The translations under genes were made by a program, and so were the position numbers. From assembly GCA_001000675.1 (NCBI GenBank), contig LCHW01000001.1, forward strand, positions 463-64,462: a DNA stretch of 64,000 nucleotides, read 5' to 3'. This DNA comes from Candidatus Wolfebacteria bacterium GW2011_GWE2_44_13 (GTDB lineage: Bacteria; Patescibacteriota; Minisyncoccia; UBA6257; UBA9933). Positions 4,795 through 60,415 of this stretch are shown in pieces (positions within the stretch are counted from its first letter, which is position 1; every line of letters begins with the position of its first letter). The notes below the pieces were generated by a model, which was not told the origin of the DNA, made no database searches, and saw only the letters and a list, made by a program, of their open reading frames with translations.

Positions 4795-5361
4795 GTTTAG
4801 TTGAGTTGTTTGGAAAATATATTTTACTGCTTTTTTTAAATCAAATTCTTTTTTATGTCTTGTCTTCTGTTTTCTTTGTTCGTATCGATGCAACTTGCTA
4901 TCGAGCGTTGCATCGTTTTGATGATAATATATTTCTTCACCAACTCGTTCTTTCTGTTTATACCAAGTGCTTTCGAATAAACTTCTTTCCACTCGCTGAA
5001 GCACATTCTGCTTCCAACCTTTTTTACTCAACTTGTTTTTATTACTATGCTGTTTGTCATTTCTGCGAAGACTGATACTTGGCGTAATCGAGGAATCTGT
5101 TTTTACATACTGCAGATCCTTCGACAAGCTCAGGATGACACGTGCAGCGGAATAATTTTTGAAACACAAAATTTCCTTTTTGCTAAAGGATTTCATTTCT
5201 TTATATATGCTTAATGACGCACGCAAGAGTGTCATTTATTTCGTAGTGATGTATCGATTATTCAACGCAAGAAGAATGTTCGACAACTTATTTTTTGTTA
5301 CCCATGTAACATGCTTTTATTATATGCTTCTTGTTATTACAACGCAAGCATATTTTAAAAA

Positions 5362-6393: not shown

Positions 6394-6700
6394 TCAGGTC
6401 CCCGTATACGCGAGGATAAACTCCGGCGGGGATTCATAAAAATACTGGATTCCCGCCTGCGCGGGAATGACAATGCGAAAGAGGCTCTGGCATTCCGAGC
6501 CCTTCAGCACGCTCAGGATAAACTCTGTCGAGGAATCTGCTCTCACTATATTCTTACTGCAGATTCCTCCACTTCGTTTCACTGCGGTCGGAATGACAAT
6601 ACAAAATACTGGATTCCCGCCTGCGCGGGAATGACAATGCGAAAGAGGCTCTGGCATTCCGAGCCCTTCAGCACGCTCAGGATGACCCCGTAAAATTCGC
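6394..6700. repeat. Tandem pair of REP/MITE-like elements, each ending in the GATTCCCGCCTGCGCGGGAATGACA hairpin motif.
   Basis: An ~80-bp direct repeat (AATACTGGATTCCCGCCTGCGCGGGAATGACAATGCGAAAGAGGCTCTGGCATTCCGAGCCCTTCAGCACGCTCAGGAT) occurs at about 6437-6520 and 6602-6685. Track ORFs 6394..6705 and 6579..6842 (peptides VIPAQAGIQ...) are translations of this repeat. Confidence 0.6.
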
Positions 6701-6811: not shown

Positions 6812-7087
6812 GTGTGAAACAAAAATGTTTCACACGGCCCAAACTGCCGATATTTGTTTCACGTGAAACAATTTGTCACGTTTTACGCCCCCATTTCGAA
6901 ACTTTTGTTTCACGTGAAACATTTTGTCACGCTTTTGCTTCCCAGGTGTGAAACATTTTTGTTTCACACCGATTATTTTGTTTCACGTGAAACATTTTTA
7001 AATTCACCTTTGGAAGATTTGTTTCACGTGAAACATTTTGTTTCGTTTCACACCATGTTTTTCGCAATATTTGTTTCACGTGAAACA
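6812..7087. promoter_or_regulatory. parS: Array of parS (ParB-binding centromere-like) sites: five perfect 16-bp palindromes TGTTTCACGTGAAACA plus two degenerate inverted-repeat variants.
   Basis: Perfect TGTTTCACGTGAAACA at 6855-6870, 6906-6921, 6979-6994, 7020-7035 and 7072-7087. Variants GTGTGAAACA-N4/5-TGTTTCACAC at 6812-6835 and 6946-6969. The sequence matches the conserved chromosomal parS consensus tGTTtCACGTGAAACa. Confidence 0.75.
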
Positions 7088-7142
7088 AAAGTGCTCATTT
7101 TAACCCTAAGCCCTGCCTATCTATTTGGCATTACCCCCAAGG

Positions 7143-7254: not shown

Positions 7255-7330
7255 GATTAATCAAGTGCCTTGTCATTCCCGCGGAGGCGGGAATCTATTA
7301 GGTGCTGGATTCCCTCCTCCGCGGGAATGA
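7255..7330. repeat. REP-like compound palindrome (TGTCATTCCCGCGGAGGCGGGAATC, 12-nt spacer, GATTCCCTCCTCCGCGGGAATGACA).
   Basis: Member of a dispersed palindromic family also seen at 59706-59765, 61885-61945, 48598-48640 and 6394-6700. Confidence 0.6.
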
Positions 7331-7379
7331 CACACCTTCGCTTTTACATACTCAGTCTTCCGCCGTATACTTTCTCTAT

Positions 7380-7796
7380 ATGACCGACCATCTTCAAACA
7401 GGTTCACTCGGTGAAGACGCTGCGTGCGCATATCTTGTGTCTCAAAAATTTTCCATTCTTGAAAGAAACGCTCGAGAGAAATTTGGGGAAATCGATATCA
7501 TCGCAAAAGATCCCGATGGTATTCTTGTCTTCGTCGAAGTGAAGACACTTAGCTCTCCCGAATTCTTGTTCCCCGAGGACAACTTGACCCGAGCTAAGTT
7601 TAAGAAACTTTCCCGCACTTGTCTGGCTTATGCGAATGCTCATCCCGAGCTTGTTGATTCCCAACTCGGATGGCGTATCGACCTTGTCGCCATAGTCGTA
7701 AACCCTCCTTACTCAACCACCCCAGACGCTCACCTATTTCAATACGGCAAAAATAATTTTGCCATATCGCATTACAAAAATATCTCGCTCGCATAG
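7380..7796 (+). CDS. yraN: YraN/UPF0102-family predicted endonuclease.
   Basis: MTDHLQTGSLGEDAACAYLVSQKFSILERNAREKFGEIDIIAKDPDGILVFVEVKT matches the UPF0102 pattern (GE..A..YL...G..IL.RN.R...GEIDII..D....VFVEVK). The ATG at 7380 is in frame with track ORF 7302..7796; the upstream portion of that ORF overlaps the REP element. Confidence 0.7.
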   Translation: MTDHLQTGSLGEDAACAYLVSQKFSILERNAREKFGEIDIIAKDPDGILVFVEVKTLSSPEFLFPEDNLTRAKFKKLSRTCLAYANAHPELVDSQLGWRIDLVAIVVNPPYSTTPDAHLFQYGKNNFAISHYKNISLA

Positions 7797-7815
7797 TGCG
7801 AGCGAGATTTGTTTT
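7783..7815 (+). terminator. Intrinsic terminator: 11-bp perfect stem TCTCGCTCGCA/TGCGAGCGAGA whose loop is the yraN stop codon, followed by TTTGTTTT.
   Basis: Seen directly in the sequence. Confidence 0.6.
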
Positions 7816-7850: not shown

Positions 7851-8236
7851 GTACTCAGATATACATCGGAAACACAACCTCAGTCTTGATCCTTCTTGCG
7901 TTGGAAATATAGGCTACACATTTTACATATCACATGACACTCTTGCGTTTGTCATTCACTCTTTATCGTTTTATTTTGTCTTTTTTGAAAAAGACTTTTT
8001 TGCGTTTTACTCGCCTTACTATCCTTGCGCAACGGCTCGTTAGAAGTAGGGAAATGAGTGTACATATTTTTACAAAATCATTTCGAAATCAGTCCTTCTC
8101 TATTTTAAAATATCTACGGCGCTCGCTCCTGAGACGCAGGAGAGTTGGGGAGCAAGTCTTACAACTCACCCCTCGATACAACTACCGCCGACTCAACACA
8201 CTCACTATCCAAAACTCAACTCTTCCTACTATAACA

Positions 8237-11200
8237 ATGCAACGACTTACCAGAACAATCGCATCACTTATCCAATCACAACGACGTACGCTAACACGTG
8301 GGCTTGTAATTGTACTGGCAATCATGACTGTCGTTGCACCACTCGCACCAGCGTTCGCCGCGACGTATACGGTGACACAATCGAGTTGGACTGGGGGAGC
8401 TTCATCAGCCAACGCAAGTCACCCAACCAACGCAACTGGATGGACAAACTTTTCAACTACCTCTCAAGCCGTTGCGGGAAGTGCCGTCACCTCCGCAGTA
8501 GTCGCAAGCTCAACAACACAAACAACGTTTGCGGATTTTACTGGTGGCGCTACGAGCTCAGTGGATATTAACGGAACTCCCGATGCTTCACTTGCATTGC
8601 AACGTCTTACAACCCCAACGACGTTTGGAGGGGATGCACAAAAAACCATTTCTCTTAACACACCGAATGCTTCTGCACTTGATACTGTAAACAACAAAAT
8701 TTATATCGCGGATACTAATAATCACCGAATTGTTAAAATGGATTCGGGGACTGGCGGCACTACATTTGGCAATAATGCTCAGACCCTCGGAGGTCCTACG
8801 GCTGGAACTGGCGTTGGACAGTTTTCTTCACCTACTGGTATTACCGTAGACCCGATTAATAATCTCGTATATGTCACAAGCGCTACCACGGATAACGTTA
8901 TTAAATTTTCCTCCGGTGGTGCTGGACTTATGGCAACGAGCACCTGGACTTCTATTGCAGTTACTAATCCTAACGCAGTTGCTCTTGATGTCTCTGAAAA
9001 TTTGGGGTATGTAGTCACCGCCAGTAACGAAGTCGTTCTATTTAATACCGCAACCATGGTGCGTATGGATGCTATGGGAAGTACTGGTACCGGAGCACAC
9101 CAATTTTACGCCCCAGTGGGTGCTGTTATTGATTCTGTTTACAACAAAATTTACGTTGCTGACACAAACAATAACCGAATTGTCAAAATGGATTCGGGAA
9201 CAGGAGGAACAGAATTTGGAGCGAACCGTCAAACATTAGGTGGCCCTGCATCTGGAAGCGGTACTGGACAATTCAATGCCCCAAAAAGTTTGGCACTTGA
9301 TTCTGTGAACAATATGCTTTATGTCTCTGATACCGGCAATCATCGTATTACTAAACTTGCTTCCGGTGGAGCGGGCGCAATGTCTACAAGCACATGGTAT
9401 ACACTAGGAGGAACCGCTTCTGGATCAACGGCGGGTAAGTTCGCCTCTCCACGAGGAATTTTTGTCGACACCGTAAATAGCTTCGTCTATGTTGCCGACG
9501 TAGCAAATGATCGCATTGTTAAGTTTTCCTCCAATGGAACGGGTGCTATAACTACGACTGGATGGAATACCCTTGGTGCAAATGGAACGGGTATTGGCCA
9601 ATTTGGAAATCCTTTTGGAATTACTGTCGATGTTACAAATGCAATGGTGTATGTCGCAGACTTAACAGGCCCACGCATTGCGAAATTTTCTTCCGGTGGA
9701 GCGGGAACGATGTCGACAAGCACATGGTTTACACTCGGTACTTTTGGTTCTGGCGCTGGTCAATTTACTGGGCTGGAGGATATTGCGCTAGATAGCGTAA
9801 ATAATTTTCTATATGCCGCAGATGCTAGCCGTGTAGTAAAATTACCCACTAATGGAGCTGGTGCGCTTACGACTACAGGCTGGACAACACTTGGAACAAG
9901 TGGGAGTATAAGCGTTGGACAATTTGATGACTTAACCGGCATTACTGTCGACGCCACTAATAATGTTGTGTATGTTATCGACAATGGACGTAGCGGTGTC
10001 GTACAATTTTCTTCCGGTGGAGCGGGAGCGATGTCTACGACTGGGTGGGATTCAATTGCTTCCCTAGGAGCAGGGACCCACGAGCTACGTAGTCCTTCTA
10101 GTGTTGCAGTTGATGCGTCAGCTAATAAGGTATATGTAACCGAATCTTCTAATAATCGCGTATCTAAATTTAACTCTGGTGGCGGAGGAACCGAGTTTGG
10201 AACCGCCCGACAAAATCTTGGAGGGCCTACCGGTGGCTCGGGTGTTGGGCAATTTTATGTGCCTCAGGGTATCGATATCGATACAACTAATAATTTTGTG
10301 TATGTTGCGAACATGCAAACAGACACTATTATTAAGTTTGCTTCGGGTGGAGCGGGAGCGATGTCTACGACTGGGTGGTCTACCTTGGGCGCGAGTGGGA
10401 CGGGCATTGGGCAGTTTGGACAGGCATACGATGTTGATGTTAATACACTTAACGGACGTTTATTTGTCACTGATTATGAACATGATCGCGTAGTTACCTT
10501 TGCTTCGGGTGGAGCGGGAGCGATGTCTACGACTGGGTGGGATGCCTTAGGCAGCTCAGGATCTGGATTAATGCAACTAAGTCAACCTTATAAAATATCC
10601 ATCGATCGCGTTAATAATAAGGTGTATGTGGCTGACAGAATCAACAACCGTATCGTAAAGATGGATTCCGGTACTGGCGGCACTACGCTAGGGAATAACC
10701 GACAGACTCTTGGAGGGCCTACAGCTGGCTCAGGTACTGGGCAATTCAATAGCCCTATTGGCCTATTTGTCGACACAGTTAATAACTTCGTGTACGTTGG
10801 CGATGATGGTAATAATCGTATTGTAAAGTTTTCTTCCGGTGGAGCAGGTGCAATGTCTACGACTGGATGGAATACGTTAGGATCCTCTGGCTCGGGTGTT
10901 GGCCAATTCCAGACTCCTACCGACGTTTTTGTCGACACCGTTAATAACTTCGTGTACGTTTCTGATAGTCTCAACCACAAAGTTGCAAAGTTTTCTTCCG
11001 GTGGAGCAGGTGCAATGTCTACGACTGGATGGAATACGTTAGGATCAACCGGCACGGGTGTTGGTAAATTTACAACCCCTGAAAGTCTCTCCATTGATAC
11101 GACAAACGACTACGTCTATGTAATTGCGTCTAATTTTGTTGTTAAATTTCCTTCCGGTGGAGCGGGTGTCATGACTACGGACACTTGGCAAACGATTGGT

Positions 11201-14200
11201 GGAACAGGGGTCGGAGTCGGCCAATTTACAAGTGCGAAAGGAATATTTATTGACCCCGTTAACAATTACGTGTACGTTGCCGACACAGGAAACGACCGCA
11301 TTGCGAAGTTCGCCTCGGGCGGAGCTGATAGTATGTCGACGAGCACATCGTGGCAAACTGCGCCTGTATCAACAGACCCGTACGGCGTCTTTGTTGATAC
11401 CGTTAACGCGCGCGTATACGCAGTTTCAAGCCCCACTAACGCAGTCTATTCTTTCACCTCTGGCGACCCAATGATTGCCTATGTTTCAGCTGGGGCATAC
11501 ACATCTTCTGTTATCGATGCAGGAGTAAACACCCGAGCGGGTTCTGTTTCTTTGAGCTGGACTGATTCCATCTCCGCATCTATCAACACTGCAACGCCAG
11601 TCGGACTGCAAGTTGCGAGCAGTAACAGCGCAAGCGGTCCATGGACATTTTACGGGCCGGCGGGAACAACGGCTGCAAGCGATGTCTATACCACAAAGAC
11701 AGGGACGATTCTTAACGCAATCCATAACGGAGCGCGCTACTTTAAGTATACAGTTACGTTACAAACGGGAGACGTTACACTAACCCCCGAAGTTCTTTCG
11801 GTAACATTTAATTACGATAGCTATGCGTCTGCTTCCTATATAATCTCTTCTCCATATAACACAGGGGACATCAGTAACATTATTGGGAAACTCCAATGGG
11901 TTGCGAACAGCACACCTTCGGGCACGTCTATTAAGTTTCAACTCCGCAGTGCTCCGGATGTAGCAGGAGCTCCAGGAGTGTGGAGTAACTGGGTTGGTCC
12001 GGACGGACAAACGAGCTCGTACTTTACCACTGCCGCTGGAACCGACTCTATCCCGAGTATGTTTACCACTAACTCGCAGTGGTTCCAATATAAAGCGTAC
12101 TTTGATTCTACTGGTATCAACACGGCCTCTCTTGGTAGCGTCACCACTACGTATTTAGTAAACAGTCCTCCGCAGGTTGGAGCTACTGGCGTTACTGCAT
12201 ACCAAATTCCCACCTCGACCGACGCAAACTACGGTAACGTTGCTATTGCCTTTTCAGTAAAGGACACTGACTCTGAAACAGGCCTTGCCACCACGACGCT
12301 TGAATATAAAAATGGCGCAAGTTGGGTTCCTTTGACGAACGCTACAATTTATAACGCATCGAGTAATCCAGTAACAAGCCCGCTCGTTGCGCCAACTTCA
12401 ACATTTGCTTCATATTCCGTTATATGGAATGCAGCTGCACAGCTCGGCTCTGTGGCCACCTCTACACAAATCCGCGTTACGCTTAACGACGGAGCACTTG
12501 GCAACGCAACTGCATCGTCATCAAGCACTGCATTTTCAATCGACACTGTTGCCCCTACCGGAGGCTCGCTTACCTTTGACGCAGGTATCGCTGGGCAAAC
12601 AAACAGTGGTTCAATTGTCATTGTTCCGGCAACCGATACGAATACCCGCCAGTATACAATTTCTGACGGCACAACCACAAACGACTGGGCTTCAATTTCT
12701 ACTACAGTCACTATTCCGTGGACATTTAGCTCCACCATTAATGCAAAGACACTATCCCTTCAATTTAGGGATGCTTTTGGCAATACTGCGGCAACTTCAA
12801 CCTATACTACTCCAATACCTTCTGACCCAAGCGGATTTCTTATTCAAGACGTTTCAAAAGTTGGCACCGCAGATTATCGCCTTTATATAGGATGGGCTAC
12901 ATCGTCGGCCGTCAACTTCGGTTCGTATAAACTCGAGTACGCAACGTCAACAGACAACACAACGTTCGGGACATATTCCGATGCCGCTCTTATCACTGAT
13001 GTTGCGACAAACTACTTAGTTCACGTCAATCTTAACAACGCATTGTATTATCGATATCGTCTTGCCGTTAAAAACACTCAAGGTAATACGTCTGTTCGAT
13101 CGAATGCGTATATTAACGCACGCCCTGATGGTATACAGAACCTCGGCGAAGGAGGGGGAGGGACTACTGCATCTGCAGCATCAATCACAACCGTTTCTCC
13201 TGTGCAAACTACTTCCGCAGGTACGGTTACCGTTGCATATACCCTCGTCGATACATCTATCACGAGCAAAACAAATCCGTTGTACGAAGGATATGTCTTC
13301 TATAATATAGGAACAACTGTTTCAACATCGGACGCAACGACAATTACCCTATCCGATGCTTCACATCTTCCAGCTAGTGGATTTATTCAGGTTAACAATG
13401 AAATCATCGGATATACATCCAAGACCGGAAATGTTTTGAATGGCATCACGCGCGCAACATGGCCGACTCCCGCAACTACACGAGCAACCCGACAAAATGC
13501 GTTGATTTTGAGCAACACGCCAGTGTGGGTGCAGGCAAGTTCGACAAAAACAACGATTACCAATAGCACTATTGCGACCGGCCAAGCGGGGACTATTATA
13601 TGGAACACACAGAATGAGCCGGCACTTACGGGAGCAACGTATGCCAACACAGGCGTGCGCGTATTGGTGCATGATAATCAAGCCGCAGAGTCAGGTCCTA
13701 TTACTACGCAGAGCGACCAGTCAAACGATGGAACATTGGCAACACTTGATATGAGCGCGCCGACGATTCAATTCACAACCGCAAATGCTAGCGGACTCGA
13801 AACAACTGGATTTGCAACTTCAACAATCATCCTATCAAAGCCATATCCGTTGAGTGTTTCTACAAATTATGCCGTGACCGGAACAGCGACAGCGACACAT
13901 GGGCTTTTGGGTTATTGGCCATTTGAAGGAAATGCGAATGATACGAGTGGGAACGGGAATAATGGAACATGGTACGGAACTTCTACGAGCCGATATGGAA
14001 CAGGAGTGCACGGTACGAGCGGAGCATTAAATGGAAGTAGCGATTATTTAGATTTTGGTAATAGCACCACATTTAACGGAATGAGTGCTCTTTCAGTTGA
14101 AACGTGGGTAAAATTAGACGCTTATCCTTCTACGGGCTTAAATTATTCTCCTGCAGGTAAGGATGCTGCATATCGATTTACAATAGGGCCATCAGGATCT

Positions 14201-17200
14201 GTTTCATTTACCATTGCAACGGTAAATAATGGCTGGTACACTCCTGGAACTAGTGTGTCCGCCAGTGGAGCTCTTCAATTGGGGGCTTGGTATCATTTAG
14301 TGGGAACCTATGACGGCGCACGCACAAAGATTTATGTAAATAGCGGTACACCCGTACAAGGAGCACAGGCTATTTCAGGGAACACTGTCACTAACGTAAC
14401 TTCTTTTAAATCGAGCTATAACACTGGGAATATTACTTATTTAAAGGGCGCTATTGATAGTACTGCTCTTTATAACCGCGCACTCACTCCTTCAGAAATT
14501 GCAGATCTTTACGCTTTTGGCGTGCAAGATTATGGCCTTTCAACTAACGCGACCACAGGTACGGTAACAATTGCAACAGGAGCAACATCAACTGCAATTA
14601 CGGCGAATATCATAAACGATCAACTCCCTGGCATCGACAAGAATTTCACCATAACCTTGTCGAGCCCAACCAATGCAACTCTTGGGGCGAACACGGCACA
14701 CACCTATACGATCACCGAAGTAACTCCAAATCCGACTATCGGGTTCTTGAGCGCAACTGCATCAACGACCGAAGCGGAAACTATCGTTACTGTGCCCGTT
14801 GTTCTTTCAACTGCATCTGCCGTTGATACATCGGTAAGCTATTCAATTGCTGGAGGTACGGCCATTATCGGAACAAACTATTCTGCAACCACGACAAGTG
14901 GAACAGTAACTATCCCTGCAGGTGCAACATCTACAAGCATTACCTTTGCCATCAAACAAAGCGCACAGAAGGACTCTGACCTTACGGTCTTGGTCACTTT
15001 GTCGAGCCCAACGAATGTAACGCTTGCAACATCAACACACACGCACACCATCAAAGACAGCAGCGTTACGCCGACGGTGTACTTTACTACGGCAAGCGGA
15101 TCAGGGTCTGAAGCAACGGCAAATCCAACGATTGGCATTTCACTTTCAAACCCTTCTGCATCTGCAGTAACTGTTACCTATACGGCAACTACTTCGAGCG
15201 ACAACTCAGCCAATGGTTTGGTTGGCTTATGGCAGTTTGAAGGGAATGCAAATGATACGAGTGGAAATGGGAATAATGGAACACCTCAACTAGGTGCAAC
15301 ATTTTCTTCTCTAGGGGGCGGCAAATTTGGAACACAAGCGGGGGTTTTCGATGGAGGTGCAAGTGCCTATGCAACATTGAATAGCGAAATTCGATTCTCT
15401 GATTCTCAACCATGGACTCTTTCTTCGTGGATTTATCAAACCGGAACAAAATCCTTTGAATTTTGGATAGGGGATAAGGATACAGTAGGGATGGCTATAA
15501 ACTTGGGTAGCGCCACTGGCCTTGTACAGTTTAGAGACCGCGCACTTGCCTATCATGATTGGAATGTTGGATTTAATTATAAAAATGCGTGGCATTACTT
15601 TACTTGGATCGCGCGCGGAGACAACACTATTGAGATGCTCGTTGATGGAATCTCTTATGGACTCGTCACAACTCCAAGTCAGTTTTATATAGACGCCATC
15701 GGACGAGGATATGGAACGGGCACTCAGTGGAACTATACAGGGCGTTTAGACAACACCGCCATCTACAACCGTGCCCTTTCGGCAGCGGAGGTTAAGGCCC
15801 ACTATGCAGCGGGTATCGACACACTTCCTGCAATCGGAACAGTAACTATTCCAGCAGGACAGACATCTGCAATCATAACGCCAACTATCATCAACTATGG
15901 ATCGTACGAAGGGGATCGTGAATACAAACTGGTTCTCTCCACTTCAACCAATGCAACCATTGGAGCAACAAGTACATACACATACTCGATTACTGAATCA
16001 AGCGCACTTCCTGCGATTGGATTTACCGTAGCAACTGGCACAGGACTTGAAGCTGCTACAACAACGGTTACTGCCTCAATCGCATATCCGTCTGTCTTTG
16101 ACATAACGGCAACGATTGCACAGTCGGGAACTGCGGTCAGTGGGGTCAACTATACAATCCCTGCAACCACAATCACGATTCCTGCCGGCGCTACATCGAC
16201 ATCGTTTGTTTTGACAACGCTCAATAACGGTGTGCGTGATCCATTGCTTTCCGCTGTTCTTACCTTGACGAGCCCAACAAACGCAACCGTCAATGCAGGT
16301 GCATCGACATATACGTACAGTATCCAAGACAACAATGTCATTCCAACGATTGGCTTTGCTTCTACTGGTTCAACCGTTGATGGAGTTGTATCAACAATCA
16401 CTATTCCTGTGAGCTTGTCTTCTGCAATGAACCAAGATGCGTCTGTGGGATATACGGTGACAGGAACTGCTGTCTCGGGCCTCCACTACAACGCAAGCTT
16501 CGCTTCAAGTGGTACAGTATCTATTGCAAGCGGCGCAACAACAACCAATCTAACAATCCCATTGCTCGATGATGCCATCAGTGGCCCTGTTACAACGACT
16601 GTTATTATTTCTCTCGCAGATCCAGTCAATGCGACGACGACAAATGCAACCACGACGTATACATTGACCATCAATGAAGTAACGGCAGATCCAGCAATTG
16701 GATTTACCAGCACTTCTGCTTCAGGACTTGAGAATATTGCTTCCATAGCCATCCCGGTGTCTATTGATGCAACGTCAACACAGGCAATCACTGTCACCTA
16801 TACCGTATCTGCATCATCAACTGCAGTCAGTGATACAAACTATGTTCTTGCAAATGGAACGGCTACTATCGCAGCAGGTGAAACAGCAACAACGATCAGT
16901 GCATCCATTCTCAACAATCCTGTGCGTGAATTGGACAAGACCCTCATCGTTACCTTGGGCACTCCAGTAGGAGCAACGCTCGGAGCAGCAACTACATACA
17001 CGTACACAATTCAGGACATCATTACCACAACTGCTCCGGTGATGAGCAATATCATCCCGACGCAGAGTACTACGAACGGAACAGTATCAGTTGCATACAC
17101 CATTACCGACGAAGCATCCACCAACAAGGTATTGCCATCATATGAAGGCTATGTCTTCTACAATATTGGTACGACTGTATCTTCTGCAGATGCAACAACC

Positions 17201-20200
17201 ATCACTGTTTCTGATGCAACGCACTTGCCAACCGCAGGCTCTATCCAAATTGGCAATGAAGTTATTACCTATACCACAAAGACAGGCAATGTTCTTTCTG
17301 GGTTGACCCGTGGTACATGGCCAACAACGGGAGCTCGCACAACACGACAGAACACAACTATTGTTGCTGGTACTCCGGTTTGGATTCAAGCAGCTTCGAC
17401 AAACACAACCATCGTCAATTCGACGATTGCAACAGGACAATCGGGAACCATCGTATGGAACACACAAAATGAACCTGCACTTGCAGGAGCAACATACAGC
17501 AATGTAGCTGTCCGAGTTCTTGTACATGACAATCAATCTGCAACAACCGGTCCGCTTTCTTCACAGAGCGATCAATCCAATGATGGAACATTGTCGTTGC
17601 TTGATATGAGCGCGCCGACGGTGAGCTTTGCTACTACTGCTTCCAGCGCCTTCGAGAATGCAACAACATCAACCACACTAACTGTTGTTCTTTCGAAGAT
17701 TGCACCTGTTGATGCTTCTGTCGGCTATACCATTACGGGAACTGCCGTAAGTACGGTTGACTATATAGCGGAAACCGAAGGAACGCTTACCATTCCTGCA
17801 GGAGCAACATCAACCACACTCTCGATTCAGCCAATTGCTGACCATGTGTTTGGAGTAGACAAGACCGCAATTGTAACGCTTTCTTCTCCAACCAATGCAA
17901 CAGTGGGTGCACCAAATGCATATACACTTACGATTGTTGAAGCAGATGTTCTTCCTACAATTCAGTTTGATGTCGCATCGGCATCTGGACCGGAAACCAC
18001 ACCGTCTTACGATATCGTTGTGCGTCTTTCTACGACAACAGCTGCAACAACTACTGTTGCCTATGCTGTGTCGACCTCGACTGCACTTGATGGAATAAAC
18101 TTCTCCCTTACTGCAGGAACACTTACCATCCCAGCAGGAGAACTTACCGCATCCATTCCACTCACAGTCATTCATGACAACTTGTTTGGTGCGGACACTT
18201 CGGTGACGGTAGCGCTTACTAACCCAACCAATGCAACGCTTGGAGAAACAACATCCTTTGTGTATACGATTACTGAAACGGATCTTACTCCAGAAGCAAA
18301 CTTCTCTGTAGATTCTTTGAACGTAGATGAACTTACCGGCACAACCACGGCAACGGTAACGCTTTCCTATCCATCCAACCAGGACATTACTATCCCTGTT
18401 GTGGCAGATCCCGCATCAACTGCCGTAGCGGAAACCAACTATACCCTTCCGGTATCTTCAGTTACCGTTCCTGCGGGAGATACGACTGCATCGTTTACGA
18501 TCATAGCGCTCCATGATACAACCTACGGCCCAGACAAGACGCTTACCCTTTCCTTGGGCAGTGTTGATGGGATGACCTTGGGATCATCTACTACCTACAC
18601 GCTTCTTATCACCGAAGTAGATAACACCGCTCCGGAAGTCGCATCAGTTTCTGCGGCACAGGTTGCATCTTCAACTGAAGCAAACTTTGGAAAGGTGGAA
18701 ATTGTCTACACCGTTCGGGATACCAATACGAATAGCGGAACAGTAAACCCAACATTCATCACCCCTTCGTTCGAATACAACACAGGGCTTGGATGGAATG
18801 TAATTACCACACTCCAAGCAGAAGACATCGCAAACAAATCTGTAGCAGAAGACGTCTTTGCGCCATACACTGCACTATGGGATGCGCAAGCACAGCTCGG
18901 GTCTGTTTCATTGCCTGCCGTAGAAATTCGCGTCAGCGCAAATGACAATGAACCGCTCAATGGCATCGGACAAGGCACAAGCACTTCGTTTGCCTTTGAT
19001 CGCCAAGCACCACAAATCGGACAGTTCAAGTTTGATGCACGTACCGGTGTGCTGACCATCGCAATTACCGACGCAGCTTCATTCACGTATGCTGTTTCCA
19101 ACAACGCAGACCTTTCTGCCGATGGCGTCAACGCAACAAGCGGTATCAGTACGGCAGCTCCAGCAGGCACGCTTGCATCAACAGAACTATGGACTGTTGC
19201 ATCGGGTGATTACCCAAGCATTTACTTGCAGGTACAGGATGCCCTTGGCAACGCAGCAACCCGTCAGATTACTATCCCAACAAAGCCACAAAACTTTGCC
19301 TTTACCGATATCTCCGACGTAAAGAGTTCACTCTTCAAGGAGCTTGTCAGCTGGTTGCCGTATGTTTCCACATCGAGTGCACCATTTGCTTCCTACGATA
19401 TCTATCGCTCTATCGATGGCGCTGAATTTGCGCTCCTTACCACGAAGAGCGAAATTGCCAACAATTTCATTGTTGATGAAGGACTTGCATCATCCAGCGT
19501 CTATACGTACAAGATGACCATCACCGATACCGCGGGAAATGTTTCTGAGTATTCGGAGACTGTAACCGATACTCCTGATGGACAGGGTCAAACAGACCTT
19601 GTTCCTCCAATCATCTCCGTCGTTACCGCAGCAACGGTCCGCAATACTTCTGCAATCGTCACATGGACTACGGATGAAATTGCAGATTCCATCGTTCGTT
19701 ATTCCCTTGCATCAGATGCAGGATCATATCGCACCGCCTCATCAACCGGACTTGTTACTGACCATTCCGTTACATTGACTGACCTTATCCCGAACACGGA
19801 TTATACGTTTATCGTACAGTCAACCGACCCAACAGGAAATGCTTCTGCATTCTCTGATTCAATTGCCTTCACTACAACAGGAGGTCCGATTATTACCGAC
19901 ATCGTTGCAACTCCCGCCGACAAGGCTGCGACAATCACATGGAATACCAACAAAGATTCTGATTCAATTGTTACCTATTCAAAGAGCTCAAACTTCAATG
20001 GCTTCAATGCAATCGTGGGCACAGTCACCCCTGTGGGAGATGCTTCAACCACGGATGTATTCACGCATGAAGTTTCGATTACCGGACTTGATTCCGGATC
20101 AACCTTCTACTACAAGGTGAGCTCGACTGACAGCAGCGGAAACGAATCAGTTGATGACAACAATGGAGTGTACTACACATTCCGAACACTGAGTGATACC

Positions 20201-21892
20201 TATGCCCCAGTCATTACCGGCATCACCGTTCCGCTCAGCACACCGCAGTCGTTGATTATTTTCTGGAAGACCGACGAGCTCGCTACGTCACAAGTTGAGT
20301 ATGACCAGACAAGTACTTCGACCTTTGCACGAAGCACGACACTCGATTCTACGCTTTCGATTTATCATTCGATAGTGGTTCCGGATCTTACTGCAAATAC
20401 GACTTACAATTATCGCGTCCGTTCACGAGATGCATTTGGGAATGAGGCAATATCTACATCTACCAGCGCAACAACGGCAAAGGAGGGTGAAGTACGTATC
20501 GTCACTATCGGAGGCGGATCAGGTGCAGGGCAATTTACCACACCGCCAGAGGTGAAGGATACAACAGCTCCTATCATTTCAGCCGTTACGGTCGCCGCAA
20601 CAACCGCGTTTGGAGCGACGATTACGTTTACAACCAATGAGCCAACTGTTGCCTTTATCGACTATGGCAAGGACGCAACTTATGGATCGTCATTAGGGAG
20701 CAAGAATCTTGCCACACAACATAGCCTTACTATCTCTGGATTGCGCATGGGAACTGAATATCATTACCAGCTCAAAGCTATTGATAAGGCATTTAATGAA
20801 TCTGTAGGCACAGACCAGACATTCTCAACCAAGTTTCTTTCTGAGCCAGGGGATGACCTACAGACGCTCGAAGACGTTACTGCATATGAACAGGTGTCTG
20901 ACGAAGCCCTTGAATCAATCTTGCCGAGCATTCCCCCGCCGTTCATCGAAGAGCCGCGCGTCGTTGAAACAACAGAAAATACAGCGACTATCCGATGGAG
21001 AACAAACATTAACGCGTATGCAGGTATTCTTTATTCAGAGGCAACTGCATATAGCGCTTCATCTACAAATCCATACACTGATGAGCTTTCTCAAGCAACG
21101 ACAAAGGAGAAGGAACACACCATTACGCTTGTCGGCTTAAAGCCAAACACTACATACCACTTCATGGTTCGCTCATTCTCGCTTCCGCAGGTAGTTGGTC
21201 GAAGCCAAGATATGACATTTACCACGAAGGCGGCTAAAGTCTCGGCTCGTGTTATCAACGTAAAGAATACGTCATTCACCGTGGTATGGAATACAGAGAC
21301 GCCTGCCTCGACTATCGTTGAATATAAGAATATGAGAACAGGCGAGATACAACGCAAGATCGACAATAATCGAAAGCTTGATCATGACGTACTTGTTGAT
21401 CGCCTTATCCCTGCAACGGGCTATGAAGTTTCTGTATTCGGATACACTGAAGGTGGAAACTTGATTGAAGGAGGTATGCCAATCACCATCACTACCTCGC
21501 GCGACGTCATAGCTCCGAAAATATCTAACTTCAAAGTTGATGGGGCATTAGTTCCAGGGAGAACCGATCGAATTCAGACGGTTATCACGTGGACTACGGA
21601 CGAAGCCTCTGACTCAACTATTTACTACCAAGAAGGTTCTGGGGCAGTAACTGAGTTTGCTAACAAGACAGCCATCACTGATACTCTTACCCAAAACCAT
21701 ACCATTTTACTTTCCAGCTTAAAGCCAGGGACCATTTACCAGATGAAGGTAGAGTCGGTTGACGCTGCAGGGAACAAGGGAACATTTGGCCCACGAACTA
21801 TCATTACTCCACAAAAAGGTGAATCGATCTTCGACGTCATCTTCAAGAACTTCGAAGAGACATTCAAGTTCTTGAGAGGAGCGGGGCAGTGA
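8237..21892 (+). CDS. Giant (about 4550 aa) secreted multidomain surface protein. Order: signal peptide; about 18 NHL beta-propeller repeats; beta-sandwich modules; two LamG/ConA-like lectin jellyrolls; about 12 Calx-beta-like modules; about 9 fibronectin type III domains.
   Basis: Track ORF 7934..21892 is one continuous frame. Start chosen at ATG 8237 (MQRLTRTIASLIQSQRRTLTRGLVIVLAIMTVVAPLAPAFA|ATYT, a signal peptide with an AFA-A cleavage site); in-frame alternatives at 8054 and 7934 cannot be excluded. NHL motif (YIADTNNHRIVKMDSGTGGT / YVADxxNxRIxKF) repeats from 8640 to 11400. LamG_3-like domains begin LLGYWPFEGNANDTSGNGNNGT (about 13900-14520) and LVGLWQFEGNANDTSGNGNNGT (about 15220-15810). 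Calx-beta-like modules (GTVTIPAGATSTxITxxIxxDxxxExDKTLxVTLSSPTNATLG...TYTI) run about 13750-18600. FN3 domains (DLVPPIISVVTAATVRNTSAIVTWTTDE...NTDYTFIVQSTD) run about 19560-21800. Confidence 0.85.
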   Translation: MQRLTRTIASLIQSQRRTLTRGLVIVLAIMTVVAPLAPAFAATYTVTQSSWTGGASSANASHPTNATGWTNFSTTSQAVAGSAVTSAVVASSTTQTTFADFTGGATSSVDINGTPDASLALQRLTTPTTFGGDAQKTISLNTPNASALDTVNNKIYIADTNNHRIVKMDSGTGGTTFGNNAQTLGGPTAGTGVGQFSSPTGITVDPINNLVYVTSATTDNVIKFSSGGAGLMATSTWTSIAVTNPNAVALDVSENLGYVVTASNEVVLFNTATMVRMDAMGSTGTGAHQFYAPVGAVIDSVYNKIYVADTNNNRIVKMDSGTGGTEFGANRQTLGGPASGSGTGQFNAPKSLALDSVNNMLYVSDTGNHRITKLASGGAGAMSTSTWYTLGGTASGSTAGKFASPRGIFVDTVNSFVYVADVANDRIVKFSSNGTGAITTTGWNTLGANGTGIGQFGNPFGITVDVTNAMVYVADLTGPRIAKFSSGGAGTMSTSTWFTLGTFGSGAGQFTGLEDIALDSVNNFLYAADASRVVKLPTNGAGALTTTGWTTLGTSGSISVGQFDDLTGITVDATNNVVYVIDNGRSGVVQFSSGGAGAMSTTGWDSIASLGAGTHELRSPSSVAVDASANKVYVTESSNNRVSKFNSGGGGTEFGTARQNLGGPTGGSGVGQFYVPQGIDIDTTNNFVYVANMQTDTIIKFASGGAGAMSTTGWSTLGASGTGIGQFGQAYDVDVNTLNGRLFVTDYEHDRVVTFASGGAGAMSTTGWDALGSSGSGLMQLSQPYKISIDRVNNKVYVADRINNRIVKMDSGTGGTTLGNNRQTLGGPTAGSGTGQFNSPIGLFVDTVNNFVYVGDDGNNRIVKFSSGGAGAMSTTGWNTLGSSGSGVGQFQTPTDVFVDTVNNFVYVSDSLNHKVAKFSSGGAGAMSTTGWNTLGSTGTGVGKFTTPESLSIDTTNDYVYVIASNFVVKFPSGGAGVMTTDTWQTIGGTGVGVGQFTSAKGIFIDPVNNYVYVADTGNDRIAKFASGGADSMSTSTSWQTAPVSTDPYGVFVDTVNARVYAVSSPTNAVYSFTSGDPMIAYVSAGAYTSSVIDAGVNTRAGSVSLSWTDSISASINTATPVGLQVASSNSASGPWTFYGPAGTTAASDVYTTKTGTILNAIHNGARYFKYTVTLQTGDVTLTPEVLSVTFNYDSYASASYIISSPYNTGDISNIIGKLQWVANSTPSGTSIKFQLRSAPDVAGAPGVWSNWVGPDGQTSSYFTTAAGTDSIPSMFTTNSQWFQYKAYFDSTGINTASLGSVTTTYLVNSPPQVGATGVTAYQIPTSTDANYGNVAIAFSVKDTDSETGLATTTLEYKNGASWVPLTNATIYNASSNPVTSPLVAPTSTFASYSVIWNAAAQLGSVATSTQIRVTLNDGALGNATASSSSTAFSIDTVAPTGGSLTFDAGIAGQTNSGSIVIVPATDTNTRQYTISDGTTTNDWASISTTVTIPWTFSSTINAKTLSLQFRDAFGNTAATSTYTTPIPSDPSGFLIQDVSKVGTADYRLYIGWATSSAVNFGSYKLEYATSTDNTTFGTYSDAALITDVATNYLVHVNLNNALYYRYRLAVKNTQGNTSVRSNAYINARPDGIQNLGEGGGGTTASAASITTVSPVQTTSAGTVTVAYTLVDTSITSKTNPLYEGYVFYNIGTTVSTSDATTITLSDASHLPASGFIQVNNEIIGYTSKTGNVLNGITRATWPTPATTRATRQNALILSNTPVWVQASSTKTTITNSTIATGQAGTIIWNTQNEPALTGATYANTGVRVLVHDNQAAESGPITTQSDQSNDGTLATLDMSAPTIQFTTANASGLETTGFATSTIILSKPYPLSVSTNYAVTGTATATHGLLGYWPFEGNANDTSGNGNNGTWYGTSTSRYGTGVHGTSGALNGSSDYLDFGNSTTFNGMSALSVETWVKLDAYPSTGLNYSPAGKDAAYRFTIGPSGSVSFTIATVNNGWYTPGTSVSASGALQLGAWYHLVGTYDGARTKIYVNSGTPVQGAQAISGNTVTNVTSFKSSYNTGNITYLKGAIDSTALYNRALTPSEIADLYAFGVQDYGLSTNATTGTVTIATGATSTAITANIINDQLPGIDKNFTITLSSPTNATLGANTAHTYTITEVTPNPTIGFLSATASTTEAETIVTVPVVLSTASAVDTSVSYSIAGGTAIIGTNYSATTTSGTVTIPAGATSTSITFAIKQSAQKDSDLTVLVTLSSPTNVTLATSTHTHTIKDSSVTPTVYFTTASGSGSEATANPTIGISLSNPSASAVTVTYTATTSSDNSANGLVGLWQFEGNANDTSGNGNNGTPQLGATFSSLGGGKFGTQAGVFDGGASAYATLNSEIRFSDSQPWTLSSWIYQTGTKSFEFWIGDKDTVGMAINLGSATGLVQFRDRALAYHDWNVGFNYKNAWHYFTWIARGDNTIEMLVDGISYGLVTTPSQFYIDAIGRGYGTGTQWNYTGRLDNTAIYNRALSAAEVKAHYAAGIDTLPAIGTVTIPAGQTSAIITPTIINYGSYEGDREYKLVLSTSTNATIGATSTYTYSITESSALPAIGFTVATGTGLEAATTTVTASIAYPSVFDITATIAQSGTAVSGVNYTIPATTITIPAGATSTSFVLTTLNNGVRDPLLSAVLTLTSPTNATVNAGASTYTYSIQDNNVIPTIGFASTGSTVDGVVSTITIPVSLSSAMNQDASVGYTVTGTAVSGLHYNASFASSGTVSIASGATTTNLTIPLLDDAISGPVTTTVIISLADPVNATTTNATTTYTLTINEVTADPAIGFTSTSASGLENIASIAIPVSIDATSTQAITVTYTVSASSTAVSDTNYVLANGTATIAAGETATTISASILNNPVRELDKTLIVTLGTPVGATLGAATTYTYTIQDIITTTAPVMSNIIPTQSTTNGTVSVAYTITDEASTNKVLPSYEGYVFYNIGTTVSSADATTITVSDATHLPTAGSIQIGNEVITYTTKTGNVLSGLTRGTWPTTGARTTRQNTTIVAGTPVWIQAASTNTTIVNSTIATGQSGTIVWNTQNEPALAGATYSNVAVRVLVHDNQSATTGPLSSQSDQSNDGTLSLLDMSAPTVSFATTASSAFENATTSTTLTVVLSKIAPVDASVGYTITGTAVSTVDYIAETEGTLTIPAGATSTTLSIQPIADHVFGVDKTAIVTLSSPTNATVGAPNAYTLTIVEADVLPTIQFDVASASGPETTPSYDIVVRLSTTTAATTTVAYAVSTSTALDGINFSLTAGTLTIPAGELTASIPLTVIHDNLFGADTSVTVALTNPTNATLGETTSFVYTITETDLTPEANFSVDSLNVDELTGTTTATVTLSYPSNQDITIPVVADPASTAVAETNYTLPVSSVTVPAGDTTASFTIIALHDTTYGPDKTLTLSLGSVDGMTLGSSTTYTLLITEVDNTAPEVASVSAAQVASSTEANFGKVEIVYTVRDTNTNSGTVNPTFITPSFEYNTGLGWNVITTLQAEDIANKSVAEDVFAPYTALWDAQAQLGSVSLPAVEIRVSANDNEPLNGIGQGTSTSFAFDRQAPQIGQFKFDARTGVLTIAITDAASFTYAVSNNADLSADGVNATSGISTAAPAGTLASTELWTVASGDYPSIYLQVQDALGNAATRQITIPTKPQNFAFTDISDVKSSLFKELVSWLPYVSTSSAPFASYDIYRSIDGAEFALLTTKSEIANNFIVDEGLASSSVYTYKMTITDTAGNVSEYSETVTDTPDGQGQTDLVPPIISVVTAATVRNTSAIVTWTTDEIADSIVRYSLASDAGSYRTASSTGLVTDHSVTLTDLIPNTDYTFIVQSTDPTGNASAFSDSIAFTTTGGPIITDIVATPADKAATITWNTNKDSDSIVTYSKSSNFNGFNAIVGTVTPVGDASTTDVFTHEVSITGLDSGSTFYYKVSSTDSSGNESVDDNNGVYYTFRTLSDTYAPVITGITVPLSTPQSLIIFWKTDELATSQVEYDQTSTSTFARSTTLDSTLSIYHSIVVPDLTANTTYNYRVRSRDAFGNEAISTSTSATTAKEGEVRIVTIGGGSGAGQFTTPPEVKDTTAPIISAVTVAATTAFGATITFTTNEPTVAFIDYGKDATYGSSLGSKNLATQHSLTISGLRMGTEYHYQLKAIDKAFNESVGTDQTFSTKFLSEPGDDLQTLEDVTAYEQVSDEALESILPSIPPPFIEEPRVVETTENTATIRWRTNINAYAGILYSEATAYSASSTNPYTDELSQATTKEKEHTITLVGLKPNTTYHFMVRSFSLPQVVGRSQDMTFTTKAAKVSARVINVKNTSFTVVWNTETPASTIVEYKNMRTGEIQRKIDNNRKLDHDVLVDRLIPATGYEVSVFGYTEGGNLIEGGMPITITTSRDVIAPKISNFKVDGALVPGRTDRIQTVITWTTDEASDSTIYYQEGSGAVTEFANKTAITDTLTQNHTILLSSLKPGTIYQMKVESVDAAGNKGTFGPRTIITPQKGESIFDVIFKNFEETFKFLRGAGQ

Positions 21893-59957: not shown

Positions 59958-60092
59958 TGGGGTGTAGCTCAGTAGGTAGAGCGTCTCTTGGTTTTATCGC
60001 GACCTGTTTCTGAAAAATAGAACAATTGGCCCACAAAGGCCCGCGCGGTAATCAAGAGGAGGTCGCGGGTTCGAATCCCGTCACTCCAGCCA
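59958..60092 (+). tRNA. tRNA-like gene (135 nt) with canonical acceptor, D- and T-arms and encoded CCA, but an insertion of about 60 nt in place of a normal anticodon loop.
   Basis: 5' TGGGGTG-TA-GCTCAGTAGGTAGAGC-G-TCTCT...; 3' ...AGAGG-AGGTC-GCGGGTTCGAATCCCGT-CACTCCA-G-CCA. Between the putative anticodon-stem halves (TCTCTTG/CAAGAGG) lies TTTTATCGCG...GGCCCACAAAGGCCC...CGCGGTAAT, which forms an extended helix. Identity undetermined. Confidence 0.55.
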
Positions 60093-60326: not shown

Positions 60327-60415
60327 GTGCATATAGCTCAGTAGGTAGAGCACCGGACCTGTCTTCTGACAGATGTATGCGGAGGTCGCGGGTTCGAATC
60401 CCGTTATGCACGCCA
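60327..60415 (+). tRNA. tRNA gene (89 nt incl. CCA) with D- and T-arms identical to 59958..60092 but a non-canonical anticodon region (20 nt between stem halves CCGGA/TGCGG containing hairpin CTGTC-TTCT-GACAG).
   Basis: GTGCATA-TA-GCTCAGTAGGTAGAGC-A-CCGGA-CCTGTCTTCTGACAGATGTA-TGCGG-AGGTC-GCGGGTTCGAATCCCGT-TATGCAC-G-CCA. Shares GACCTGTYTTCTGA with the insert of 59958..60092. Confidence 0.55.

Follow-up and report, generated by a model that had tools for sequence, protein, structure and literature searches.

The window analysed here, a stretch of 64,000 nt from contig LCHW01000001.1 of Candidatus Wolfebacteria bacterium GW2011_GWE2_44_13, carries on its forward strand a giant gene whose product of 4,551 amino acids is an unusually expanded member of a large, unnamed and mainly patescibacterial protein family. 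The source organism is a tiny-genome groundwater bacterium of the Patescibacteria, or Candidate Phyla Radiation (CPR), and giant genes of this sort are to be expected in CPR genomes. The gene is under purifying selection, and comparison with the allele of a closely related strain reveals a module-precise mosaic of divergence. We propose, with a probability of about 0.65, that the product is a Sec-exported, non-enzymatic, fibre-like surface protein that binds a host or glycans. To the preliminary description of this DNA, the present analysis adds the definition of the family, its conserved terminal elements and the module-precise allelic replacement.

Domain architecture of the giant protein

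The reading frame of the giant gene is free of stop codons from 7934 to 21892 and counts 4,652 codons from its first ATG. The start is ambiguous between three candidates (7934, 8054 and 8237). Amino acid (aa) coordinates below count from 8237, which yields 4,551 residues and a stop codon at 21890-21892, in agreement with the single uninterrupted frame of about 4550 aa reported in a preliminary description of this DNA; the frame remains open back to 7934. The orthologue KKR12461.1, discussed below, is annotated from the ATG equivalent to 7934 (4,651 aa). The N-terminal sequence read from 8237, MQRLTRTIASLIQSQRRTLTRGLVIVLAIMTVVAPLAPAFA/ATYTV, combines a basic n-region with a hydrophobic core of 18-20 residues and an AxA motif. 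These Sec-type features and the AFA/ATY junction, read by eye, bear out the signal peptide proposed earlier, and about 60 family representatives show the same '...A-A-T-Y' junction behind their hydrophobic segment.

Upstream of the signal sequence, the frame contains 101 stop-free codons, against 157 in a second giant gene of the window, an RCC1-headed paralogue. At approximately 0.056 stops per codon for this base composition, we estimate that stop-free leaders of these lengths would arise by chance with a probability of about 0.3% and 0.01%, respectively. In many gene calls of the family, too, a long basic leader precedes the hydrophobic segment. Promoter-like hexamers lie within the leader of the giant gene (7949-7977 and 8083-8111) and speak weakly against its translation.

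The order of elements given in the preliminary description (signal sequence, NHL array, beta-sandwich modules, two LamG domains, Calx-beta modules, FN3 domains) was found again by Pfam, by hidden Markov models (HMMs) built from the giant protein's own repeats, and by matches to PDB. Pfam matches were judged against curated cut-offs, and repeats were counted by self-comparison together with the internal HMMs. NHL, Calx-beta, Laminin_G_3, Pur_ac_phosph_N and fn3 all score above their cut-offs, with whole-protein E-values of 5e-37, 2e-33, 2e-27, 1e-25 and 2e-24, respectively, so that the four assignments first made by eye (NHL, LamG, Calx-beta and FN3) stand. The coordinates of all modules are collected in Table 1.

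The NHL family (PF01436) reaches 124.5 bits against a cut-off of 20. The internal HMM detects 17 blades with a period of about 54 aa, and one more, degenerate blade lies at aa 244-291; the resulting 18 blades at 8660-11479 match the approximately 18 repeats placed earlier at 8640-11400. Stretches of 150-250 residues from this region align in phmmer searches to the solved six-bladed propellers of TRIM71, Thin, TRIM2 and SOQ1 (1e-17 to 1e-11), and the 18 blades probably fold into three six-bladed beta-propellers. The Calx-beta family (PF03160) scores 115.2 bits against a cut-off of 27, and the internal HMM counts nine modules instead of the twelve or so first estimated. At the C-terminus, fn3 (PF00041) and Pur_ac_phosph_N (PF16656-type) score 85.9 and 90.1 bits over a tandem array of seven domains (aa 3791-4516). 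Against the nine or so FN3 domains originally assigned to this end, the count is thus seven in the array, plus one FN3-like domain at the end of each of the modules here named A1 and A2.

Two LamG domains are present, as first described, with Laminin_G_3 (PF13385) scores of 85.2 bits for LamG1 and 45.1 bits for LamG2 against a cut-off of 27.6. They were listed in series with the other modules, but each is preceded by the first half of a Calx-beta module (positions 1-49 of the internal HMM) and followed by its second half. When LamG1 is deleted in silico and the flanking halves are spliced, a single Calx-beta match emerges that spans positions 6-101 of 119 and scores 33.6 bits against the cut-off of 27. 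The corresponding deletion of LamG2 yields a match over positions 6-110 with 18 bits and E=0.003, below the cut-off. By this sequence evidence, each LamG domain appears to sit in a loop of a Calx-beta module and not as one bead in a series. The opening motif ascribed to the two domains is present in the form L(L/V)GxWxFEGNANDTSGNGNNGT (LLGYWPFEGNANDTSGNGNNGT), but it is the ordinary Laminin_G_3 signature and corresponds to the consensus of about 50 unrelated LamG proteins. The sole DNA repeat shared by LamG1 and LamG2 is a 71-nt stretch encoding this N-terminal motif, with 80% identity.

For three further modules, X, A and B, neither Pfam nor NCBIfam gives a match, even at E<=1. AlphaFold models, made for X with A1 and for B1 with Calx[LamG1], are confident only for LamG1, the first sandwich of A1 and a 45-residue hairpin subdomain of B1. 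LamG1 is modelled as a jellyroll with a predicted local distance difference test score (pLDDT) of 80-93; its best structural match is the carbohydrate-binding domain 4 of AbnA, a family GH43 arabinanase (TM-score 0.76 normalised to the target), and it also resembles the lectin-like Hc-N jellyrolls of clostridial neurotoxins. The model of X with A1, made from a four-sequence alignment, has a mean pLDDT of 57.6, and that of B1 with Calx[LamG1] one of 61.6. The A module as modelled resembles tandem arrays of FN3 and immunoglobulin (Ig) domains, including the BIg domains of SiiE (2yn3), a likeness that is loosely informative. The hairpin subdomain of B1 (...ITLSDASHLPASGFIQVNNEIIGYTSKTGNVLNGITRATWPT..., 13445-13580, aa ~1699-1744) has a pLDDT of 84-91 and an equivalent stretch in B2; it may resemble the 'E-I-I-x-Y...GN-x-L-x-G-x-x-RG' hairpin motif of phage tail-fibre-like proteins.

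Thr accounts for 16% of the protein, Ser for 11% and Ala for 10%; with Gly included, these residues reach 46%. Not one of the 4,551 residues is a cysteine, whereas the RCC1 paralogue does have a few.

Family membership and divergence between strains

A profile of the X-A cassette was searched exhaustively with HMMER against 1.84 billion cluster representatives. It matches 6,801 representatives at E<=1e-3, 2,725 at <=1e-10 and 833 at <=1e-30. Figures on architecture refer to the best 150 representatives, all of which score below 1e-94. The order head (0-1,300 aa), X, A, about seven FN3 domains and tail recurs in approximately 100 of the 150. The C-terminal tail is found in 106, ending 2-7 residues before the C-terminus, with the consensus TP(R/Q/K)xxES(V/I)(F/I)(Q/D)(V/I)IxKNFExTF(G/K)(W/F), in which F is conserved to 100%, P to 98%, I to 96% and N to 93%. 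The tail is predicted to be amphipathic (hydrophobic moment 0.45-0.55), and the giant protein ends in TPQKGESIFDVIFKNFEETFKFLRGAGQ. About 60 of the 150 carry the motif ATYxFxQ(T/S)(S/D)WxGG...HPTN directly after the hydrophobic segment, which appears in the giant protein as AFA-ATYTVTQSSWTGG. The heads include RCC1 propellers in at least 15 representatives and NHL in three, the others being Gly_rich_2, LVIVD, unknown or absent altogether.

The X-A cassette of the giant aligns over its full length to a 1,377-aa family member (P0001) and to 12 homologues encoded at the loci retrieved, at 29-37% identity. The alignment with this 1,377-aa protein also takes in the seven FN3 domains and the C-tail, besides X and A; NHL, B, Calx-beta and LamG are missing from it. 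Typical patescibacterial members of the family (P0001, P0121, P0123 and P0132; usually 1,350-2,500 aa) thus have the signal segment, the ATYxFxQTSWxGG motif, the X-A cassette, the FN3 array and the C-tail in common with the giant protein, whereas they bear one head or none and lack its B, Calx-beta and LamG block. Intermediate forms exist: a protein of 3,028 aa (P0116) possesses the middle block without the NHL head, and two further loci (P0235 and L081) encode a smaller A-B-Calx x3 insert. Genome scans find the same scaffold in Wolfebacteria, Terrybacteria, Magasanikbacteria, Taylorbacteria, Moranbacteria, Saccharibacteria and other metagenome-assembled genomes of Patescibacteria; a few family-bearing contigs are labelled Acidobacteriaceae or Gammaproteobacteria, and these labels are unchecked.

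Among the best 150 representatives, the full architecture is shared by one protein alone, which is also the top match of the exhaustive search. This protein, P0114 (KKR12461.1 / HBI25859.1 / UniRef100_A0A0G0NI08), is a 4,651-aa 'adhesin' of Candidatus Wolfebacteria bacterium GW2011_GWC2_39_22. It repeats the complete module order of the window giant, with a length within 1 aa (4,651 vs 4,652), and thereby answers the search for the same domain order that the preliminary description had suggested. No paper characterising KKR12461.1 was found in a literature search, and 'adhesin' is the depositor's label. The earlier statement that the domain combination is not a named family holds for Pfam and NCBIfam, but GenBank has this 'adhesin' orthologue of identical architecture, and the scaffold belongs to a very large family.

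The gene for KKR12461.1 lies on six contigs, among them both DNTT01000008.1 and a 789,550-bp scaffold; an NCBI assembly and an ENA assembly are represented. Gene order is common to these contigs and the window, running from the RCC1 giant through xerC, the UPF0102 gene, the giant gene and an ATP-binding cassette (ABC) importer onward to the gene for elongation factor G (EF-G). Because nucleotide identity to the GWC2_39_22 contig is 94-97% over approximately 31.8 kb, the window must come from a close relative of that strain, and the small-genome CPR bacterium supposed from the sequence is thereby confirmed.

The divergence between the two alleles, those of the window giant and KKR12461.1, is distributed very unevenly along the gene. 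Protein identity is 99-100% in the N-terminus, NHL array, X, FN3 array and tail, and 94-98% across most of the middle; it falls to 80% in LamG2 and to 40-48%, with indels, in LamG1, where 40% applies across the domain and the flanks of the Calx1[LamG1] unit reach 98%. Synonymous divergence (dS) is 0 in the N-terminus, 0.013 in the FN3 array and 0.06 in the NHL region, rises to 0.16-0.37 in X, A, B and most Calx-beta modules, and reaches 1.0 in LamG2 and 1.4-2.1 in Calx1[LamG1]. At a resolution of 20 codons, the break coincides exactly with residue 1840/1841, where Calx module 1 begins: nucleotide identity goes from 0.98 down to 0.57 and is regained at about aa 2140-2155, where that module ends. 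The Calx1[LamG1] unit is thus a whole allelic replacement block relative to the GWC2_39_22 orthologue, which has another allele of it in an otherwise identical module order; blastn yields no alignment to the GWC2_39_22 contig for window positions 14004-14471. A second divergent block is confined to LamG2, with 62-82% nucleotide identity between flanks of 93-97%. The two strains therefore display a module-precise mosaic, a pattern characteristic of homologous recombination that brings in old, strongly diverged alleles of entire binding modules.

Proposed function and its alternatives

From this architecture we infer a surface location, a stalk-and-head geometry and a binding function. The general plan of the family comprises a hydrophobic signal segment, the N-terminal motif, a variable head, the X-A cassette, about seven FN3 domains and the amphipathic C-tail. 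In the giant protein, the head would consist of three NHL propellers, and a second block of the form A1-B1-Calx[LamG1]-Calx-Calx[LamG2]-Calx x3-B2-Calx x3 appears to have been inserted between X and the last A module. The Ig, FN3 and Calx-beta sandwiches may serve as spacers that together build a long stalk. Ligands would be bound by the NHL propellers and by both ConA-like LamG jellyrolls, with glycans or surface proteins of a host or partner as the most plausible ligands, and the family-wide N- and C-terminal elements may provide for export and for retention at the envelope. Within the population, homologous recombination would vary the binding specificity by exchanging entire binding modules, namely the LamG units within the giant gene and the different heads among paralogues.

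A role of giant surface proteins in the host attachment of CPR bacteria, which the preliminary description invoked, is indeed put forward in the literature. Giant surface proteins of Vampirococcus have been proposed as host-attachment adhesins (PMC8080830), and so have giant proteins of Patescibacterium, in which domain reshuffling is suspected (PMC11809585). In Saccharibacteria, PilX2, the only minor pilin that the host-tethering pilus T4P-2 requires for its function, bears an RCC1 beta-propeller and is the proposed adhesin of that pilus (PMC12206443). PilX2 of Nanosynbacter lyticus TM7x offers a parallel to the heads described here, as a beta-propeller on a patescibacterial surface appendage that is implicated in host binding (PMC12206443); an RCC1 propeller likewise forms the head of the window's paralogue and of at least 15 family members. 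PilX2 is, however, pilin-associated within a type IV pilus, whereas the window giant stands alone and lacks pilin features.

The giant shares its design principle with adhesins of type I secretion systems (T1SS) such as SiiE, LapA and MpIBP, in which a long stalk of Ig-like or Calx-like beta-sandwiches carries ligand-binding modules. It differs from them in possessing an N-terminal Sec-type signal and in lacking RTX repeats, a C-terminal T1SS signal and an N-terminal retention module. CPR bacteria have no outer membrane. Identification as a T1SS RTX adhesin was rejected on the N-terminal hydrophobic signal, the lack of any RTX or haemolysin-type match in Pfam and NCBIfam, and a LapA-domain match of 24.5 bits that stays below the cut-off of 27. 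The sortase-anchored LPXTG adhesins of Gram-positive bacteria (MSCRAMM type) likewise combine a Sec signal, a repetitive Ig/FN3-like stalk, a distal binding domain and a monoderm envelope. In the giant, the family-specific amphipathic tail takes the place of LPXTG, the C-terminal hydrophobic segment and the basic tail, none of which is found in the last 45 residues, and this identity was rejected too. FhaB-like exoproteins of two-partner secretion have been reported among other giant patescibacterial proteins (PMC11809585); whole-protein Pfam and NCBIfam scans of the window giant detect no two-partner-secretion or haemagglutination domain and no FhaB repeats, and the protein is not assigned to this class.

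Instead of a specific adhesin, the giant could be part of a fibrous layer or matrix at the surface that gives the cell its shape or protection; the propeller and LamG modules would then serve self-association or hold the protein to wall polymers of the same cell. We regard such a coat as unlikely, although the composition rich in Thr, Ser, Ala and Gly, the lack of cysteine and the broad distribution of the family in Patescibacteria would suit it, as would the family-wide conservation of both terminal elements, which is expected for assembly or anchoring. The fibrous surface of Vampirococcus is, moreover, thought to be made of giant proteins (PMC8080830). A purely structural protein would not be expected to exchange its head among paralogues (NHL, RCC1, Gly-rich or none), nor to have a lectin-like module replaced between strains that are otherwise 94-97% identical, and Pfam and NCBIfam scans find no S-layer or SLH domain.

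The ligands might also be environmental polysaccharides or detritus, bound for scavenging by a non-catalytic scaffold resembling carbohydrate-binding modules, with no part in cell-cell attachment. Domains of the FN3/Pur_ac_phosph_N type and LamG_3 are common accessories of secreted glycoside hydrolases, and the nearest structural relative of LamG1 is the carbohydrate-binding domain of an arabinanase. ConA-like genes of patescibacterial phages have been associated with adhesion as well as with the cleavage of glycans (PMC12911398). This substrate-capture role is nevertheless rather improbable: the Pfam and NCBIfam scans detect no catalytic or toxin domain across the 4,551 residues, the neighbouring genes (xerC, UPF0102 and an ABC importer of the NMT1/BPD type) include no glycoside hydrolase, and most family members have no LamG at all. 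Head swapping and the boundary-exact replacement of a LamG module fit an adhesin that determines specificity better than either a coat or a nutrient scaffold.

The divergence of the LamG domains could in principle reflect dedicated hypermutation by a diversity-generating retroelement (DGR) or a phase-variation cassette rather than ordinary recombination. DGRs are frequent in CPR genomes, and the divergence is concentrated on a binding domain. This origin is nonetheless very improbable, and classification as a DGR variable protein was rejected. The open reading frames (ORFs) of at least 300 aa in the window include no reverse transcriptase, and the window holds no template repeat or template-like near-copy of the LamG regions. 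Indels, saturated synonymous change (dS 1.4-2.1) and a ratio of non-synonymous to synonymous divergence (dN/dS) of about 0.2 mark the Calx1[LamG1] block as an old imported allele and not as a product of adenine-targeted mutagenesis.

That the giant ORF is an artefact of collapsed or chimeric repeats, or a decaying pseudogene, is scarcely credible, even though it is highly repetitive at the protein level and the RCC1 paralogue of a related genome appears frameshifted inside a repeat of about 490 nt with 95% identity, so that such problems do occur at this locus: the internal DNA repeats are diverged (85% identity in the closest pair, and 73% over 249 nt in the B1/B2 pair), no stop interrupts 13.9 kb, dN/dS against KKR12461.1 is 0.01-0.22 in every segment where it can be computed, and six contigs, an NCBI and an ENA assembly among them, all encode the 4,651-aa product. 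Nothing in the sequence would favour a collapse of repeats. The orthologue, the conserved neighbourhood and the dN/dS values show the gene to be real and constrained, and they allay the concern about assembly collapse raised in the preliminary description.

Several points weigh against the proposal of a Sec-exported surface adhesin. The start codon is uncertain, and a start at 7934 would place a basic segment of 120 residues before the hydrophobic core; such a leader is atypical for a cleaved Sec signal, and the segment could be an N-terminal membrane anchor instead. The giant protein has no recognised anchoring signal: the last 45 residues contain no LPXTG, no hydrophobic or transmembrane segment and no basic tail, no NCBIfam sorting-signal model matches the last 120 residues, and the Pfam and NCBIfam scans reveal no S-layer-homology or cell-wall-binding domain. 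How the protein is retained at the surface and which end points outward are accordingly guesses. In all nine Calx-beta modules, the acidic Ca2+ cluster (DDxxxExDE, as in NCX1 CBD1) is degenerate on inspection, being reduced to (N/H/D)(D/N)xxxGxDK with one or two acidic residues, so that Ca2+ binding and a Ca2+-dependent rigidity of the stalk are unsupported. The models of X, B and the split Calx-beta halves are of low confidence, and since AlphaFold is confident for LamG1 and not for those halves, the nesting is read from sequence only. The case for recombination, finally, draws on two alleles.

A broader and more tentative possibility, which we hold at well under even odds, concerns the two conserved ends. 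The N-element (hydrophobic segment plus ATYxFxQTSWxGG) and the C-tail (TPxxxESVFQVIxKNFExTFGW-COOH) might be the handles of an undescribed, mainly patescibacterial display or anchoring system with module exchange. Such a system would serve hundreds to thousands of modular surface fibres, whose heads and nested LamG domains would be exchanged by recombination to retarget the cell to another partner or host. The two divergent giants flanking xerC would then constitute a specificity locus, and the Calx[LamG1] replacement a host-range switch caught in the act.

Knowledge of how ultra-small CPR bacteria find and hold their partner cells comes largely from a few cultured Saccharibacteria. The family definition given here (N-motif, X-A cassette, FN3 array and C-tail) can form the basis of profile models for annotating giant proteins now called 'hypothetical', in numbers from hundreds to thousands, and the NHL and RCC1 heads and the nested LamG domains are candidate specificity modules that can be expressed for binding tests. 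The mosaic is direct evidence, at the sequence level, for an exchange of entire binding modules between close strains, where reshuffling had previously only been suspected (PMC11809585).

Genomic neighbourhood and other features of the window

Table 1. Modules of the giant gene and adjacent features, with positions in the window and, for the giant protein, residues counted from the ATG at 8237.
Feature	Position (nt)	Residues (aa)	Strand	Remarks
RCC1-headed paralogous giant gene	1-~4764		-	frame open to 5235; runs off the left end of the window
Intrinsic-terminator-like hairpin	7782-7808		+	12-bp stem, T tail; ends the upstream UPF0102 gene
Arg/Lys-rich leader	7934-8236		+	101 codons, in-frame, stop-free; upstream of signal sequence
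Sec-type signal sequence	8237-8359	1-41	+	ends AFA/ATY; by eye
Conserved N-terminal family motif region	8360-8659	42-141	+	ATYTVTQSSWTGGASS...HPTN...; no Pfam or NCBIfam match
18 NHL blades, variable 'head'	8660-11479	142-1081	+	Pfam, internal HMM and PDB matches
X module	11480-12136	1082-1300	+	all-beta, family-specific; without Pfam name
A1 module	12137-13156	1301-1640	+	three tandem Ig/FN3-like sandwiches, the last FN3-like
B1 module	13157-13756	1641-1840	+	unnamed; 60-72% identical to B2
Calx-beta 1	13757-14713	1841-1887 and ~2101-2159	+	split by LamG1
LamG1	13898-14536	1888-2100	+	putatively nested in Calx-beta 1
Calx-beta 2	14729-15052	2165-2272	+	
Calx-beta 3	15068-15991	2278-2326 and ~2531-2585	+	split by LamG2
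LamG2	15212-15826	2326-2530	+	putatively nested in Calx-beta 3
Calx-beta 4-6	16007-17011	2591-2925	+	
B2 module	17012-17611	2926-3125	+	
Calx-beta 7-9	17612-18610	3126-3458	+	
A2 module	18611-19606	3459-3790	+	31-44% identical to A1
Seven FN3 / Pur_ac_phosph_N-type domains	19607-21784	3791-4516	+	short linkers after the third and fourth
Amphipathic C-terminal tail and stop	21785-21892	4517-4551	+	conserved; ...TPQKGESIFDVIFKNFEETFKFLRGAGQ

The preliminary description took the giant gene for the dominant accessory feature of the window; the gene itself is confirmed, but the RCC1-headed paralogue is a further giant gene within the same stretch. Its product begins with a signal sequence and the N-motif ATTASFDQTSWVGGATT, followed by a seven-bladed RCC1 propeller, X-like modules, an A-like module, about six repeats of 95 aa and the beginning of a Gly-rich domain. 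An interval of approximately 3 kb, holding xerC and the UPF0102 gene, separates the divergently oriented giants. Since the terminator-like hairpin separates it from the UPF0102 gene, the giant gene forms its own transcription unit. The adjoining integrase-family gene is the conserved chromosomal XerC, and a prophage tail fibre was rejected as the identity of the giant. The window also contains dnaA and dnaN, which places the locus within about 25 kb of a probable replication origin.

A block of 23 nt (ATGACACTCTTGCG..GTCATT) opens both giant frames, at 7934-7956 and, inverted, at 5213-5235. A second short block is common to the two upstream regions, again in inverted orientation (4746-4771 and 8062-8087). 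These blocks may be regulatory, as an operator or promoter common to both genes, or they may encode a conserved N-terminal leader.

Gene calls give the RCC1 paralogue of the related genome (L089/L090) a length of 2,202 or 2,357 aa, and a gene for a 2,118-aa FN3 protein comes directly after it. On contig L090 (1-2400), the paralogue ends out of frame inside the repeat of about 490 nt, present as copies at 1-490 and 1287-1774, and the next gene carries the same repeat on in another frame. The two look like one gene of approximately 4,300 aa split by a frameshift or an assembly error.

Between xerC and the UPF0102 gene, in intergenic sequence and small ORFs, a perfect 16-nt palindrome (TGTTTCACGTGAAACA) recurs five to six times at 6850-7092, with a spacing of 41-54 nt. 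The array looks like a set of candidate binding sites for a dimeric DNA-binding protein. An 81-nt direct repeat with 100% identity (6439-6519 and 6603-6683) contains a GC-rich hairpin, GGATTCCCGCCTGCGCGGGAATGAC, and related hairpins occur at 7267-7332, at the 5' end of the UPF0102 gene. These hairpin repeats resemble palindromic elements of the repetitive extragenic palindromic (REP) kind.

An ORF of 574 aa on the forward strand (26093-27817) has no Pfam match and is conserved in the related genome (L089, 28157-29881). Rfam reports a tRNA match of 132 nt at 59958-60089 (+), about 60 nt longer than a normal tRNA, where ARAGORN makes no call. ARAGORN itself predicts a tRNA of 89 nt with an undetermined anticodon at 60327-60415 (+). 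Both may be intron-containing or otherwise atypical tRNA genes.

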